Positions 5,552 through 63,364 of a stretch of 64,000 nt of DNA are shown here, piece after piece. Source of the stretch: an uncultured Oscillospiraceae bacterium (GTDB lineage: Bacteria > Bacillota > Clostridia > Oscillospirales > Oscillospiraceae); NCBI GenBank assembly GCA_947625845.1, contig CANQQB010000002.1, positions 9,122 through 73,121 of the forward strand, given 5' to 3'. The position numbers and the translations under genes were made by a program. The number at the start of each line of letters is the position of its first letter. Positions within the stretch are counted from its first letter, which is position 1. The notes beneath the pieces were generated by a model. That model had not been told where the DNA came from. It did no database searches and saw only the letters and a list, made by a program, of their open reading frames with translations.

Positions 5552-5580
5552 TTGCGTTACATTGAACAATGCGATACAAT
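5552..5580 (+). promoter_or_regulatory. Sigma-A type promoter of LRR gene 1
   Basis: TTGCGT (5552-5557), 17-nt spacer, TACAAT (5575-5580). The arrangement is paralogous to 63021-63049. Confidence 0.55.
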
Positions 5581-5586
5581 AGGGAT

Positions 5587-5874
5587 ACGAGGTAAACAAA
5601 AGGCAGGACGTGAGGCGGTACCAACACCCCACGCCCCTATGCAGGAGCTAGCCCTCCCACACAGCAGAATTACTGCGCCGGACCCATTATAACCGTTGCC
5701 CCCCTTTTTTACAAGGACGGCTTGCGGCTGACGATGGGGCCAGTGTTGTCGTTCCACGGTGTAGGGAAGTTTCCCTGCACCGTCTTTTGTTTATCCCGGC
5801 GGAAGGGCTGCGGGCGGTCACTCGCCCCGGCCCAACTGTCGGGAAACAACTTAAGAAAGGAACGGTATAGCACT
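5587..5874 (+). promoter_or_regulatory. Long conserved 5' leader (candidate attenuator / cis-regulatory RNA) of LRR gene 1
   Basis: It aligns along its whole length with 63056-63364 (blocks GCCCCTATGCAGGAG, CTCCCACACAGCAG, GGTGTAGGGAA, TTAAGAAAGGAA). It contains an internal terminator. Confidence 0.55.
5756..5793 (+). terminator. Intrinsic terminator inside the leader
   Basis: ACGGTGTAGGGA (5756-5767) pairs with TCCCTGCACCGT (5772-5783). That is 12 bp with one G-U and a 4-nt loop. CTTTTGTTTA (5784-5793) follows. Confidence 0.6.
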
Positions 5875-7713
5875 ATGGCAAAGCGCGGTTTGTGTTTGCT
5901 CCTGGCGCTGGTGACGGTGTTCTCCCTCACCGCCCCAGCGTTCGCGGAGGAAGAACCGGTCACGGCGGAAGAACCCGTCGTGACGGAGGAACCGGAGGCC
6001 GAACCGGAGACGGCGGCGGAATACGGTGACTTCGGCAACGGCGTATTCTATCATCTGATGGACGACGGTGTTCTCACCGTCTCAGGCAGTGGCGCGATCC
6101 CAGAGGATGCGTTTCATTACCGGGACGACGTCAAAACAGTTGTCATAGAAAAGGGCGTGACCAGTATCGTGGACTATGCGTTTCTCGGCTGCACGTCGCT
6201 GACCAGTGTGACGATCCCGGACAGCGTGACTGACATCGGAGAGTGGGCGTTTTATGACTGTTCCGGTCTACAGGAAATCCAGGTCACGACAGGTAATAGC
6301 AATTACTCCTCTGTGGGAGGGGTGCTGTTCAATGCGGCTGGAACGGAGGTCGTTTGCTTTCCGAAAGGCTTTTCCGGCGTGTACACCATTCCTGACGGCG
6401 TGGCCAGCATCGGGGCGGGTGCGTTTTGGGGTTGCACGGCCCTGACCAGCGTGACGATCCCGAACGGCGTGACCAGCATCGGGGAAGCCGCGTTTTCAAG
6501 CTGCGGGGCGCTAACCAGCATAACGCTCCCGAACAGCGTGACCAGCATCGGGGATTATGCGTTTGACAGCTGCTATTCGCTGGCCAGCGTGACGATCCCG
6601 GGCAGTGTTACCGCCATGGGAGATTATACGTTCAGTTCCTGTACGTCATTGACTGACGTGACGCTCCAGAACGGCGTGACAAGCATTGGAGATTGGGCAT
6701 TTGAGTATTGCCGCTCGCTAACGAACCTAACGATCCCGAACAGTGTGACGAGCATCGGGATCGGGGCATTTTACAACTGTTTGCTGACAGACATAACGAT
6801 CCCAGACAGCGTGACCAGCATCGGTATCCAAGCGTTTCTTAACAGCGGTTTGACGAGTGTTACGATTCCGGCCAGCGTGACCAACATCGGGGGCCAAGCG
6901 TTTCTTGGCATGCTTCTGACAAGTGTGACGGTTCTGAATCCCAACTGTACTATTGGCGATTATTGGGGAAATGGTACGTCGCTGGGCGTCCCCGAACAGA
7001 CCGTTGTCCATGGCTATGCCGGGTCTACTGCGGAAGCGTATGCCAAACAGTGGGGCTATAAATTTGAAGCGCTTGCGCCTGTGCCCACGCCCACCCCCAC
7101 TCCCACGCCTACTCCTACGCCAACGCCTACGCCGGTGCCGACGGCCACGCCGGTGCCCAAGCTGGCGACGCCGAAGATCACCAAGATGGAGAATACCGCC
7201 AGCGGCCTGAAGGTGACCTGGGGCAAGGTGTCCGGCGCGGAGCGGTACATGGTCTTCTTCAAGGTCAAGGGAGCCAAGAGCTGGACCAAGATCGGCACGA
7301 CGACCGCCACCAGCTACACCCGCGCCGCCTCCAAGCTGAAAAACGGCACCACCTATATCTTCACCATCCGCTGCGTGAAAAATGACAAGAAGACCTACAA
7401 CAGCGACTATGACAAGGCCGGCGCGAGCCTGACCTTCTACGCCGCGCCGACGGTGAAGATCGCGAAGGTGGCCGGGGGAATCAAGGTGACGTGGAATAAG
7501 ATCACTGGCTCGCCGCGGTATATGGTGTACTACAAAGAAAACAATGGCGGGTGGAAGAAAATAGGGACCACCACCGCGACGAGCTACACCAGAGCGGCGA
7601 AGTACCTCAAGAACAATGTGACGTATACGTTTACGGTACGGTGCTGTGAGAACGATAAGAAAACGCTGCTGGGACCGTACAAGGCGAGCAATAGTTTGAA
7701 GTATACGAAATAA
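5875..7713 (+). CDS. BspA-like leucine-rich-repeat surface protein with a Pro-Thr linker and two C-terminal Fn3-like modules
   Basis: Signal peptide [24 protein letters not shown]. An acidic EEPVT spacer follows. There are about 11 repeats of the type IP..VTSIG..AF..C..LTSVT. The PTPTPTPT linker is at 7088-7158. Two ~85-aa repeats follow (K(I/V)...GG/SGLKVTW.K..G..RYMV(F/Y)(F/Y)K......[23 protein letters not shown](I/V)RC). The track start 5722 is an upstream extension. Confidence 0.85.
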
Positions 7714-14968: not shown

Positions 14969-15498
14969 CATTGCTGACGGCCCCCTTGTGAAAGGGGGCT
15001 GTCGAGCGTCAGCGAGACTGGGGGATTGTCGTCGGAGCACGCATGGCTAGGCCGGGATTCGCCGCAAGCGGCAAACCCTGGATAGCCAGCGGCTCCTCCT
15101 CTCCCCACGCGACAGGCGTGCCGCGTGGGGACCCCACGGCAATCCCCCCGAGCCGCCATTCGGCGGCCCACCCCCCTTTGACAAGGGGGGCGTTCGATAA
15201 GGTATTATTTAAATATCTCTCCCTCAGTCACCGCCTAAAGGCGGTGACAGCCCCCTCGACAGAGGGGGCCGGCCCCGCTGGGGCCGATTCGGGGGCAAAG
15301 CCCCCGCCTCCCTCTGACGAGGGAGGTGCCGAGCGACAGCGAGGCGGAGGGAGAGAAACATTAAAATCCAACGCGGTCCACGGCGTAAGCCGGGGACACC
15401 TTTTTGACATCGGCGGGCGGCGGTTATCTGGCGTTACAACCCTCCAGTCACGCTTACGCGTGACAGCCCCCCTTGCACAGGGGGGCCGTTCGATAAGG
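14968..15498. repeat. Extragenic repeat cluster, locus B (arm + M4 core + arm + full TGAC-type palindrome + GNRA hairpin + arm)
   Basis: It fills the whole convergent spacer between rpmE and the ABC ATPase gene. M4 core 15029-15136. Palindromic unit 15208-15369 (CTCTCC...GGGAGAGA). GTAA-loop hairpin 15376-15397. Final arm GTGACAGCCCCCCTTGCACAGGGGGGCCGTTCGATAAGG. Confidence 0.85.
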
Positions 15499-62822: not shown

Positions 62823-62988
62823 AAGGTGTCCCCGGCTTACGCCGGGGACGCACCTTATCAAAAGCCCCCCTTGTCAAAGGGGGGTGCCCGCCATCGGCGG
62901 GCGGGGGGATTGTCCCCTCGCGCCGCAGCGCGGCCCCCTCTGACGAGGGGGCTGTCAGCGCCTTTGGCGCTGACTGGGGGAGAGAATC
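62823..62988. repeat. Extragenic repeat cluster, locus L (inverted GNRA hairpin + TTGTCAA-loop arm + TGAC-type right arm)
   Basis: AAGGTGTCCCCGGCTTACGCCGGGGACGCACC; AAAAGCCCCCCTTGTCAAAGGGGGGTGCCCGCCATCGGCGGGCGGGGGG; CCCCCTCTGACGAGGGGGCTGTCAGCGCCTTTGGCGCTGACTGGGGGAGAGA. Confidence 0.85.
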
Positions 62989-63020: not shown

Positions 63021-63049
63021 TTGCATTAGGCGCGGGAGCGCGCTATAAT
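63021..63049 (+). promoter_or_regulatory. Sigma-A type promoter of LRR gene 2
   Basis: TTGCAT (63021-63026), 17-nt spacer, TATAAT (63044-63049). Confidence 0.6.
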
Positions 63050-63055
63050 GGCATA

Positions 63056-63364
63056 AACGGAATAACAAAGGCGGGACTTGGAGCGGTTTGCGGCACTCCA
63101 AGCCCCTATGCAGGAGAATGGCTCTCTCCCACACAGCAGTTATCTGCGCCCAGCTCATTATACCCGTTTGCCTTCCTGTTTACAAGGGCGAAGCGGCGGG
63201 TATCACAGGCGCTGTGTCGCGGCCTTTCATGCGGTGTAGGGAATTTCTATCCCCTGCGCCGCTTTTGTTGTTCCGGCAGGAAAGCTCGGGGACGCGCAAG
63301 CGTCCTCCGAGCCGGTCCTGTCGTGAATGGGAACAACAAAATTTAAGAAAGGAAGGCACGAACC
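63056..63364 (+). promoter_or_regulatory. Long conserved 5' leader of LRR gene 2 (paralogue of 5587-5874)
   Basis: It aligns block by block with leader 1. First hairpin CTTGGAG...CTCCAAG (63077-63102). Internal terminator present. SD region TTAAGAAAGGAAGG. Confidence 0.55.
63231..63272 (+). terminator. Intrinsic terminator inside leader 2
   Basis: GCGGTGTAGGGA ... TCCCCTGCGCCGC followed by TTTTGTTGTT. Confidence 0.55.

Follow-up and report, generated by a model that had tools for sequence, protein, structure and literature searches.

The window analysed here, a 64,000-nt stretch of contig CANQQB010000002.1 (positions 9,122 to 73,121, forward strand; assembly GCA_947625845.1) from an uncultured Oscillospiraceae bacterium, contains two homologous leaders, each located immediately upstream of an LRR protein gene (Table 1). 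A sense promoter, the left arm of an inverted repeat (arm A), a core, a terminator-like hairpin (T), the right arm (arm B), helix P5 with hairpin 2, an SD sequence and a signal-peptide gene follow one another, and this order was constant in all homologous loci.

Table 1. Features of the two leaders, in coordinates of the window
Feature	Leader	Position	Strand	Detail
Sense promoter	1	5552..5580	+	-35 TTGCGT 5552-5557, -10 TACAAT 5575-5580
Sense promoter	2	63021..63049	+	-35 TTGCAT 63021-63026, -10 TATAAT 63044-63049; inferred start ~63055-63057
Left arm (arm A)	1	5588..5602	+	repeat search, fold
Left arm (arm A)	2	63058..63074	+	5' strand of P1: covariation, G.U bias
Arm A, other strand	2	63058..63074	-	template of antisense terminator U-tail
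Antisense terminator hairpin T'	1	5605..5637	-	tail GCCTTTTGTT
Hairpin T' (P1a when read as sense)	2	63073..63106	-	terminator hairpin of predicted antisense RNA
Core of sense/antisense overlap	2	63103..63139		CCCCTATGCAGGAG 63103-63116, small hairpin, TCCCACACAGCAG 63127-63139
Antisense promoter	1	5686..5714	-	TTGTAA 5714->5709, TATAAT 5691->5686
Antisense promoter	2	63157..63185	-	-35 TTGTAA 63185->63180, 17-nt spacer, -10 TATAAT 63162->63157
Predicted antisense RNA	1	~5679 to ~5594	-	from antisense promoter
Predicted antisense RNA	2	~63150 to ~63063	-	from antisense promoter
Pyrimidine-rich linker before T	2	63220..63227	+	GGCCTTTC, complementary to GAAAGG 63347-63352: candidate anti-SD
Sense terminator hairpin T	1	5756..5783	+	12 pairs, tail CTTTTGTTTA
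Sense terminator-like hairpin T	2	63231..63262	+	-20.4 kcal/mol
Right arm (arm B)	1	5784..5798	+	repeat search, fold
Right arm (arm B)	2	63263..63275	+	U-tract and distal bases, 3' strand of P1
Downstream elements	1	5795..5877	+	P5 5795-5802 with 5836-5843, hairpin 2 5805-5833
Alternative arm B partner	2	63274..63341	+	P5 63274-63280 with 63317-63323 around hairpin 2 63284-63312
A-rich mimic of arm A	2	63330-63341	+	alternative arm B partner
Ribosome-binding site	1	5853-5865	+	GGAACG 5859-5864 complementary to CGTTCC 5750-5755
Ribosome-binding site	2	63345-63356	+	AAGAAAGGAAGG
ATG	1	5875	+	start of BspA-type LRR protein
ATG	2	63365	+	LRR protein gene, cut off by window end

More than 111 homologous loci, up to 9 per assembly, were collected from Oscillospiraceae genomes with an exact-word pattern made of the two core motifs, CCCCTATGCAGGAG and TCCCACACAGCAG. 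As these motifs were the search pattern, their invariance reflects ascertainment, and as many of the loci are paralogues or come from close relatives, homologue counts are not counts of independent events. The genes that follow the leaders code for BspA-LRR, SLH, choline-binding and WG-repeat proteins and lipoproteins. No Rfam 15 family matched the whole window at the gathering score, and the scattered weak matches obtained at E<=10 for both window leaders and one homologue were taken as noise. Literature searches covering Oscillospiraceae riboswitches and the gut-microbiome structured-RNA catalogue turned up no description of a motif in these taxa or gene classes. A MITE or REP-like repeat with terminal inverted repeats was also considered, and was rejected because conservation extends to the flanks beyond the arms (promoter, P5/hairpin 2, SD, signal peptide); the unrelated genomic contexts expected of such copies were not seen.

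The sense promoter was conserved over 110 homologous upstream regions as -35 TTGCnn, a spacer of 17-18 and -10 TAnAAT (TATAAT 58, TACAAT 24, TAAAAT 18, TAGAAT 5). It was missed by a simple promoter scan, because TTGCAT scores 3/6 against TTGACA. The sequence-only reading had placed the left arm at the extreme 5' end of each leader, a plausible location given that the conserved -10 boxes of the two leaders put the inferred start 1-3 nt before the arm. Its description of the repeat was borne out: in leader 2, positions 63058-63077 and the reverse complement of 63256-63275 are identical at 16 of 20 positions, in leader 1 the 10-mers at 5593-5602 and 5784-5793 pair without a mismatch, and the arm sequences differ between the leaders and are complementary within each. 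As RNA, the 20-nt arms of leader 2 form 16 Watson-Crick and 2 G.U pairs with 2 mismatches. A repeat search returned arms of 17 nt (63058-63074 and 63259-63275; 88%) placed 184 nt apart in leader 2, and arms of 15 nt (5588-5602 and 5784-5798; 87%) placed 181 nt apart in leader 1.

Within a single sequence such a repeat is near chance, mononucleotide shuffles matching its score in 5% (leader 2) and 18% (leader 1) of trials; its significance comes from the covarying arms of more than 100 homologous leaders. Among the homologues, cognate arms paired at -20.3 kcal/mol; swapping the partners gave -15.3 and shuffling the arms gave -9.7. In a model-fitted alignment of 102 leaders, 11 of the 13 pairs of the helix formed by the arms (P1) changed on both sides, with a covariation score of 0.337 against 0.169 when shuffled (0/500 as high) and at most 0.138 for slid partners. 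Covariation was strongest in the outer pairs past the U-tracts (alignment columns 6-14), and the inner part, an A-tract facing a U-tract, was nearly invariant. As the four inner pairs keep U on the 3' side, the U-tract itself is constrained.

Mismatches between the arms, read on the sense strand, were of the G.U type (G.T/T.G) in 153 cells, about 90 of which stem from one conserved position, and A.C/C.A in 8 cells. A fixed-register alignment of the arms contained 64 A.C cells, which were attributed to a shifted-register subfamily; P1 is retained in a shifted register, with bulges, in the AGAAGCA subfamily. The longest perfect DNA run between the arms averaged 6.7 bp. As the mismatches are almost all sense-strand G.U, they point to a helix of the sense RNA, not to a recombinase repeat. 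Covariation and strand-specific wobble pairs show P1, as a predicted structure, to be a long-range sense-RNA helix of 13-18 bp, and the arms are in all likelihood such a helix rather than a DNA switch. P1 was present in the minimum-energy and centroid folds of window-leader transcripts ending at arm B. In equilibrium folds of full leaders it was mostly absent and arm B paired downstream; kinetic or other assistance would be required for P1 to form. For the arms, scoring pairs column by column on plain MAFFT alignments gave no information, as A-rich columns pair with any U-rich column and registers differ among subfamilies, and this approach was replaced by partner-swap energies and a covariance-model alignment; RNAalifold missed P1 for the same reasons. 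The U-richness of arm B could also follow from pairing with the A-rich arm instead of from termination.

Sequence evidence places a second promoter within the leader on the opposite strand, where it converges on the sense promoter. Among 100 scorable homologues its -10 was TATAAT in 93, TAAAAT in 4 and TAGAAT in 2, its -35 was TTGnnn in 97, and the spacer, variable in sequence, was 17 nt in 98. The minus-strand promoter and a terminator-like site on that strand were called in both window leaders. Hairpin T' has 13 pairs, of which 11 changed on both sides, and 98% of its cells were paired on the antisense strand. Wobble cells on that strand numbered 244 G.U versus 2 A.C, and reading the same hairpin as sense gave 65 A.C versus 2 G.U. 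In the antisense consensus fold from the plain alignment, 99.1% of cells were paired. The predicted antisense RNA folds at -46.9 kcal/mol (z = -4.7), its CCCCTATGCAGGAG and TCCCACACAGCAG motifs form a stem of 9 bp, three of them G.U, and on average 5.5 of 8 nt in its tail are U; the predicted RNA is thus structured and ends at its own terminator. The antisense unit is very likely real, and the antisense RNA, the starts and the 3' ends are predictions.

Downstream of the sense/antisense overlap, T and its U-tract make up an intrinsic terminator in the sense leader. T is a sense-specific hairpin: across homologues it has 11 pairs, 98.3% of cells paired and a sense-strand wobble count of 187 G.U versus 12 A.C, and on average 6.07 of 8 nt in the tail after it are U. 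A simple scan called the leader 1 copy and missed that of leader 2, because the loop of the latter exceeds 8 nt. In the sense RNA, CUCCCACAC of the core is a candidate preemptor, that is, a partner of the 5' arm of T. The two paired in nascent-RNA folds of 83/95 homologues, both segments being invariant, one by ascertainment; as the core motifs were the search pattern, the pairing is without covariation support, and in one diverged copy it is not obviously kept.

Arm B has a further partner, which the sequence-only reading had missed: in leader 2, TTTTGTTGTTCC (63263-63274) is complementary at 12/12 positions to GGAACAACAAAA (63330-63341). P5 shares the distal 4-5 nt of arm B with P1, and it covaries (cognate -17.3, swapped -14.8, shuffled -12.6). 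The predicted specific partner of the SD is the linker before T. The linker:SD complementarity was -7.42 for cognate and -6.79 +/- 0.24 for permuted pairs, the cognate value being reached in 0.45% of permutations; partner-swap scans against the SD region in 12-nt windows gave a small SD-specific signal only. Predicted SD accessibility was 0.73 with P1 forced versus 0.41 with arm A blocked, rising in 48/65 and falling in 1, figures that depend on a folding model forbidding pseudoknots. Sequestration of the SD by arm B was rejected, arm B supplying just 0.19 of 10 SD nucleotides in the ensemble.

The best explanation, which we consider somewhat more probable than not, is an antisense-RNA attenuator, with P1 as the mark or lock of the read-through ON form and as a competitor of the downstream helix. 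The arms would each serve as an intrinsic-terminator tail, the terminators facing outward on opposite strands of one conserved leader of ~300 nt. The right arm would be the U-tract and following bases of the sense attenuator hairpin T; the left arm would be the first bases of the sense transcript and, on the other strand, the template of the U-tail of T', which would end a short (~85-100 nt) antisense RNA from the conserved promoter inside the leader. The regulatory logic, modelled as follows, is offered tentatively, at roughly even chances or slightly below. The antisense RNA would be complementary to the sense RNA from ~+7 to +95, including arm A and CUCCCACAC, and its binding would free T to terminate and would block P1. 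As P1 would be able to form only once a transcript has passed T, it would not decide termination. In read-through transcripts it would close the whole leader into one domain, remove the distal arm B bases from P5, and keep the pyrimidine-rich linker, inside the domain, off the ribosome-binding site. This would make P1 the helix of the ON state.

Two readings of the repeat had been proposed from the sequence alone. As for an RNA antiterminator, the helix between the 5' end and the U-tract found support in covariation and the sense G.U bias, and the antiterminator role did not. In a classical long-range antiterminator the 5' arm would invade the 3' arm of the terminator and prevent termination, and in leader 2 and ~28% of homologues (GGCGGG) P1 can indeed reach 4 bp into the terminator stem from its base. 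However, this extension competes with a conserved local closing stem beside arm A, and P1 overlaps the T stem by 0-2 nt in most homologues, reaching 4 nt in the GGCGGG subgroup, so that the alternative helix does not overlap the stem enough to exclude it. The conserved P1 partners are the U-tract and the 9-13 nt after it, which are transcribed after the stem and leave the polymerase post-decision, and in both window leaders P1 and the terminator hairpin coexist in predicted folds; this role is very improbable. It is also improbable, slightly less so, that the arms are alike merely as U-rich tails of opposite-strand terminators, with no selected pairing between A and B. Both tails are U-rich, the inner A-tract/U-tract part hardly varies and the repeat is near chance in one sequence, as such a by-product would predict, but covariation peaks in the outer pairs, past the U-tracts, cognate pairing is 5 kcal/mol more favourable than pairing of swapped arms, pairing is kept through the register shift, and mismatches are biased to G.U. 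A ligand- or protein-sensing riboswitch-like leader, in which P1 closes a large aptamer and its 3' strand is common with the expression platform P5, is unlikely, though the most credible of these alternatives; the antisense promoter likeness would then be incidental, or the antisense RNA would have no regulatory role. P1 closes a multi-helix junction in folds ending at arm B, is mutually exclusive with P5 as in riboswitch platforms and needs extra stabilisation in silico, and the associated genes form a coherent cell-surface set. The helix resembles an aptamer P1 in joining the 5' and 3' ends of a leader and in having a 3' strand in common with an alternative expression-platform helix; unlike there, the 3' strand here comes after the terminator, not before, and no ligand pocket or known family is recognisable, in keeping with the lack of an Rfam family match. 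Against this alternative, the conservation of 'domain 2' consists of two hexamers a constant 17 nt apart, with variable sequence between them, the signature of a promoter and not of an RNA, the hairpin beside arm A is optimised for the antisense strand, and the junction motifs are invariant by ascertainment.

The other proposal was an invertible DNA switch, in which a recombinase flips the ~180-bp segment between the arms; a RecV-like recombinase need not be linked to its switch. The geometry is close to that of cwpV, where imperfect 21-bp repeats 195 bp apart lie between a fixed promoter and a cell-wall protein gene and the OFF form carries a terminator (PMC2784873). As in the cwpV and flgB switches of Clostridioides difficile (PMC2784873, PMC5386303), the leaders have imperfect inverted repeats of ~20 bp, separated by ~190 bp and located between a fixed promoter and a cell-wall protein gene, and contain a terminator; the arms, 181-184 nt apart, follow the conserved promoter and precede the ATG by ~90 nt, and the segment between them holds a promoter. 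Unlike those switches, the leaders showed no sign of inversion in assemblies: none of ~105 distinct loci was inverted, and a second assembly of the window locus had the same orientation. A single orientation is weak evidence alone, because cwpV is likewise mostly in one orientation, OFF, in assemblies (PMC2784873). Metagenome contigs scanned for the inverted junction gave 3 unrelated chance matches lacking the core motifs, a result of little weight as the scan had no positive control. Also against inversion, the mismatches are strand-biased (153 vs 8), perfect runs are short (mean 6.7 bp) and one subfamily keeps the helix despite a shifted register and bulges; the repeats follow the strand-specific pairing rules of a sense-RNA helix and are not conserved as DNA sites. 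It had also been proposed that inversion abolishes termination, by separating the hairpin from the U-tract. In-silico inversion instead placed a hairpin of -22.8 / -21.9 kcal/mol (native, -20.4 / -21.5) directly before the same U-tract, an equally strong hairpin with which termination would persist. With hairpin and U-tract in both orientations, rather than in one only, the two would not differ as ON and OFF by the proposed logic, and an invertible switch is extremely improbable.

The antisense-RNA attenuator model resembles the antisense-RNA-driven attenuation of pT181, pIP501 and RnaG/icsA. In the Gram-positive systems pT181 (RNAI/II) and pIP501 (RNAIII), a short constitutive antisense RNA binds the nascent leader of a replication gene, and this countertranscript removes the preemptor segment, so that the downstream terminator forms. 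Those are plasmid copy-number circuits, whereas the targets here are chromosomal genes for surface or secreted proteins, and the corresponding preemptor pairing (CUCCCACAC with GUGUAGGG) is only predicted. The 5'-terminal base-pairing of the ermC and aprE leaders stabilises Gram-positive mRNAs and, in Bacillus, guards against 5'-end-dependent decay; the first transcript nucleotides would likewise be paired here, with a partner ~190 nt away instead of in a local 5' stem-loop. In Shigella flexneri, RnaG acts on icsA by antisense-RNA-induced attenuation and transcriptional interference, the convergent promoters being 120 bp apart (PMC2879508). The Oscillospiraceae leaders share with RnaG/icsA face-to-face promoters ~100-120 bp apart in the leader of a surface-protein gene, an intrinsic terminator in the sense leader downstream of the overlap and, by prediction here, a structured antisense RNA with its own intrinsic terminator. 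RnaG is ~450 nt, plasmid-borne, confined to a single locus and experimentally shown, and the antisense RNA predicted here is ~85-100 nt. Unlike RnaG, the Oscillospiraceae element is present up to 9 or more times per genome, and its leader also has a long-range helix between 5' end and U-tract, together with a downstream helix that competes with it.

It is conceivable, though rather doubtful, that the antisense RNAs cross-regulate leaders in trans, as a genome-wide network giving surface variation without DNA change. Each surface-protein gene (up to 9 or more per genome) would have its own short antisense RNA, the antisense core would be common to all paralogous leaders and the loops locus-specific, and the 5'-end:U-tract helix would make read-through mRNAs resistant. 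If true, adhesin-like proteins of abundant gut commensals would be expressed either in concert or to the exclusion of one another.

Two points bear on the reading of such leaders in general. A cwpV-like inverted-repeat geometry alone is insufficient to call an inverton, and the strand on which a helix acts can be read from strand-specific wobble bias (G.U vs A.C), which within 220 bp here told apart a hairpin and a long-range helix of the sense strand and a hairpin of the antisense strand. Genetic work on the Oscillospiraceae (Oscillibacter, Flavonifractor and relatives), which are abundant in the gut, is difficult, and to our knowledge next to nothing has been established about how their surface proteins are regulated. 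The whole element is apparently an undescribed sense/antisense control element ahead of many surface-protein genes of gut Oscillospiraceae. As the ~300-nt cassette (promoter, attenuator, predicted antisense RNA and long-range helix), found in dozens of species, stands ahead of many LRR, SLH, choline-binding and lipoprotein genes, it would be a major control point of the cell surface. We know of antisense-driven attenuation mainly from plasmids and one virulence gene; if the model is true, it would be extended to a chromosomal multigene family.

The two leaders that precede LRR genes in the window are paralogous 5′ regions of about 300 nt with 79% identity, each preceded by a conserved promoter and followed by the gene of a secreted BspA-type LRR protein. 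The inverted repeat that the sequence-only reading had reported at their 5′ ends was reproduced: in leader 2, 63058-63077 and the reverse complement of 63256-63275 shared 16 of 20 bases, two of the remaining four positions forming G·U pairs when read as RNA, and the 10-mers of leader 1 were perfect complements. As shuffled sequence reached the repeat score in 5% (leader 2) and 18% (leader 1) of shuffles, each repeat alone is near shuffle level and a single window is unable to settle its meaning.

More than 111 loci in a species-representative genome collection were matched by a pattern of exact words from the two most conserved blocks, CTATGCAGGAG and CCACACAGCAG, which are thus invariant in the homologue set by construction. 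Nearly all matches listed came from Oscillospiraceae (Oscillibacter, Flavonifractor, Pseudoflavonifractor and unnamed MAGs, the MAG hosts being rabbit, mouse, chicken, deer and human gut), with up to nine leader copies in one assembly among them. Every full-length copy had the order promoter, left arm, core, sense terminator-like hairpin (T), right arm, P5/hairpin 2, ribosome-binding site (SD) and gene. In nearly every case the gene begins by encoding a signal or lipoprotein peptide; the products sampled were LRR_5, SLH, choline-binding, WG-repeat and Cu_amine_oxidN1 proteins, with a few AMP-binding or acyltransferase proteins. The minority of leaders before such cytoplasmic-looking genes, rather than before genes for secreted proteins, may serve envelope-modifying enzymes. 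A covariance model recovered two further leader copies (151.9 and 89.7 bits) without the exact words of the pattern, and two truncated copies, at loci L071 and L103, whose similarity breaks off short of or within the terminator, at a distance from the arms. No Rfam family was matched by either strand of the leaders.

The left arm (the predicted first bases of the sense transcript) and the right arm (the U-tract and the bases distal to it) pair as a helix, P1. The mean arm duplex energy was −20.3 kcal/mol for cognate arms, −15.3 for arms swapped between loci and −9.7 for shuffled arms. In 102 leaders re-aligned to a covariance model into which P1 had been written, both sides changed in 11 of 13 pairs (for example GGAAUAAC/GUUGUUCC, CGAGAUGAAC/GUUUGUCUCG, GGCGAAUAAA/UUUAUUCGCC and CCGAGGAAAU/AUUUUCUCGG), and the covariation score was 0.337; shuffles gave 0.169 (0/500) and slid partners 0.138 at most. 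The …AGACAGCAGAAGC… subfamily retains a helix of 13 bp with its register displaced by about 6 nt, which accounts for spurious A·C cells in the fixed-register count. On a DNA alignment scoring all mismatches equally, the arms had 153 G·T/T·G, 8 A·C/C·A and 15 other mismatches; one conserved position supplied about 90 of the G·T cases, and the bias was still about 7:1 when it was removed. The four inner pairs were, with few exceptions, A-U or G·U whose U lies in the 3′ strand, and they never flipped, indicating that the U-tract as such is constrained.

A simple scan of the minus strand of both window leaders detected a promoter, TTGTAA-17-TATAAT, directed at a terminator-like site, namely a hairpin adjoining the left arm (T′) followed by a U-rich tail ending in that arm. 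In the homologues, the antisense −10 was TATAAT in 93, TAAAAT in 4 and TAGAAT in 2, the −35 was TTGnnn in 97 of 100, and the spacer was 17 nt in 98 of 100, variable in sequence and free of indels. A fixed-length spacer of variable sequence between conserved hexamers is conservation of the promoter type, not of the RNA-domain type. T′ read as sense contained 65 A·C/C·A cells versus 2 G·U; read as antisense, these A·C cells become wobble pairs (244 G·U, 2 A·C), and T as a sense hairpin had 187 G·U and 12 A·C. In T′, both sides changed in 11 of 13 pairs, with a covariation of 0.259 versus 0.124 in shuffles (0/500). In a plain alignment, the antisense stretches of 104 loci gave three hairpins closed by a short stem, with 99.1% of cells paired. 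CTATGCAGGAG and CCACACAGCAG pair with each other in the antisense strand only, through three G·U pairs, and a diverged copy retains this stem through compensatory changes. The antisense RNA predicted for the window (about 63150 to 63063) has a fold energy of −46.9 kcal/mol (z = −4.7). The leader is thereby predicted to contain an antisense transcription unit. Since T′ is antisense-specific and T sense-specific, the left arm is read as the U-tail of the antisense terminator on the other strand, and the right arm as that of the sense terminator; on the sequence evidence, the inverted repeat is a pair of predicted outward-facing terminator tails, also selected for pairing in the sense RNA. The main copy at locus L011 has a broken antisense −10 (TATAGG), together with the weakest U-tract and P1 in the set.

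Two functions had been proposed for the repeat. For an RNA antiterminator, pairing of the arms as a sense-RNA helix was borne out by the covariation and G·U bias, but the antiterminator role was not, P1 lying mostly beyond the T stem. Its conserved pairs sit on the U-tract and the following 9-13 nt, overlapping the T stem by 0-2 nt in most homologues and by 4 nt in the GGCGGG subgroup, which includes leader 2. Because the partner bases exit the polymerase after T has formed or failed, and both T and P1 were present when RNAs with their 3′ end at the right arm were folded in silico, P1 is a feature of read-through RNA and not a competitor of T. For an invertible DNA switch, the model was cwpV (PMC2784873), in which imperfect repeats of 21 bp are separated by 195 bp, the promoter lies outside them and the OFF form carries a terminator, and the resemblance in geometry made the idea reasonable. 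About 105 distinct loci included no inverted copy, and the orientation of the window locus was identical in a second assembly. When metagenome contigs were scanned, without a positive control, for the junction that inversion is predicted to create, three unrelated chance matches resulted. As cwpV itself is mostly OFF in assemblies (PMC2784873), modest weight was given to orientation, and the switch was rejected on the stronger arguments of strand-biased mismatches and hairpin symmetry. A preference for wobble on one strand is expected of a sense-RNA helix and has no reason in a recombinase repeat; as DNA, the arms had a longest perfect run of 6.7 bp on average. Nor would inversion separate hairpin from U-tract, as had been supposed: the hairpin just inside the left arm equals T in strength and, inverted in silico, stands directly before the right arm's U-tract (−22.8 / −21.9 kcal/mol; native T, −20.4 / −21.5).

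P1, as the read-through helix, may bear on the SD. P5, a downstream helix around hairpin 2, shares its outer 5′ strand with the right arm (its distal 4-5 nt), so that P1 and full P5 are mutually exclusive. P5 covaries (UCUCGGCGG/CUGCCGGGA, UCUUGAUGG/CCAUUAAGA, UCUUUGCGG/CCGCAAGAGA), with energies of −17.3 (cognate), −14.8 (swapped) and −12.6 kcal/mol (shuffled). Leader 2 has, immediately before its SD, an A-rich copy of left-arm sequence to which the entire U-tract arm is complementary as well (12/12). When full leaders were folded at equilibrium, the right arm was paired downstream and the 5′ arm mostly free. With a pseudoknot-free folding model, the predicted unpaired probability of the SD was 0.73 with P1 forced versus 0.41 with the 5′ arm blocked, and forcing P1 raised SD accessibility in 48 of 65 leaders and lowered it in one; because pseudoknots are outside the model, this is a hint, not a result, that P1 raises SD access. 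The predicted partners of the SD in these folds were core elements and a pyrimidine-rich linker just before T. The linker was specifically complementary to the SD region of its own leader, scoring −7.42 versus −6.79 ± 0.24 (0.45% of permutations reached the cognate value). The hairpin after the right arm, comprising P5, an internal loop GGAAA / CGGUAC and a G/C-rich inner stem, is conserved family-wide in shape and partly in sequence; a protein might bind, or cleavage occur, at the loop. In one subfamily an additional hairpin separates P5 from the SD; at locus L013 it gave a weak match to the Rfam DUF805 RNA (20.6 bits, E = 0.2, below the gathering score), probably by chance.

Short G+C-rich palindromes recur on both strands in intergenic regions of the window and look like REP-type dispersed repeats or terminators. 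Locus L001, the second assembly, which covers leader 1, agrees with the window at 99.9% identity from 5331 on; upstream of that point (L001 1-1610) lies different DNA with a PP2C-family gene on the other strand, and 108 nt at the junction match window 15029-15136 at 93.5%, which suggests that a dispersed repeat was the site of a rearrangement or that the contig is chimeric.

Coordinates of leader elements, further leader copies and other features (window positions unless a locus from another assembly is named)
Feature	Position	Strand	Remarks
Leader 1 arms	5588-5602 / 5784-5798		repeat search; 15 nt, 87%, 181 nt apart
Leader 2 arms	63058-63074 / 63259-63275		repeat search; 17 nt, 88%, 184 nt apart
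Antisense promoter	63157-63185; 5686-5714	−	conserved ATTATA-N17-TTACAA; near-consensus sigma-70 type on the opposite strand
Linker:SD, leader 1	5750-5755 with 5859-5864		CGTTCC with GGAACG
Linker:SD, leader 2	63220-63227 with 63347-63352		GGCCTTTC with GAAAGG
Hairpin after right arm	63284-63312; 5805-5833		also in homologues
DUF805 RNA match	L013 3579-3637	+	
Covariance-model copies	L021 7668-7883; L011 6993-7237; L071 3204-3459; L103 3830-4052	−	
Cytoplasmic-looking genes after leaders	L028 5305-7005; L031 4073-5047		similar: L066, L089, L098, L100
14-mer CCCCTGTGCAAGGG	5276; 15470; 33150; 33390; 40896; 55486		six occurrences
Further G+C-rich palindromes	62865-62884; 62954-62974		

The predicted antisense RNA is complementary to sense positions of about +7 to +95, including the left arm and CUCCCACAC. 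In folds of nascent RNA cut just past the 5′ arm of T, this arm, GUGUAGGG, paired with CUCCCACAC in 83 of 95 homologues. Should the pairing delay T, binding of the antisense RNA would release the 5′ arm of T, favouring termination; it would also prevent P1. The proposed logic is also that of pT181 and pIP501, in which antisense binding frees a terminator arm and favours termination. It is likewise that of RnaG/icsA, where convergent promoters 120 bp apart were shown to give antisense-induced termination and transcriptional interference (PMC2879508); for the leaders it is proposed from sequence. The repeat is part of an apparently undescribed sense/antisense leader cassette, widespread before the surface-protein genes of gut Oscillospiraceae.
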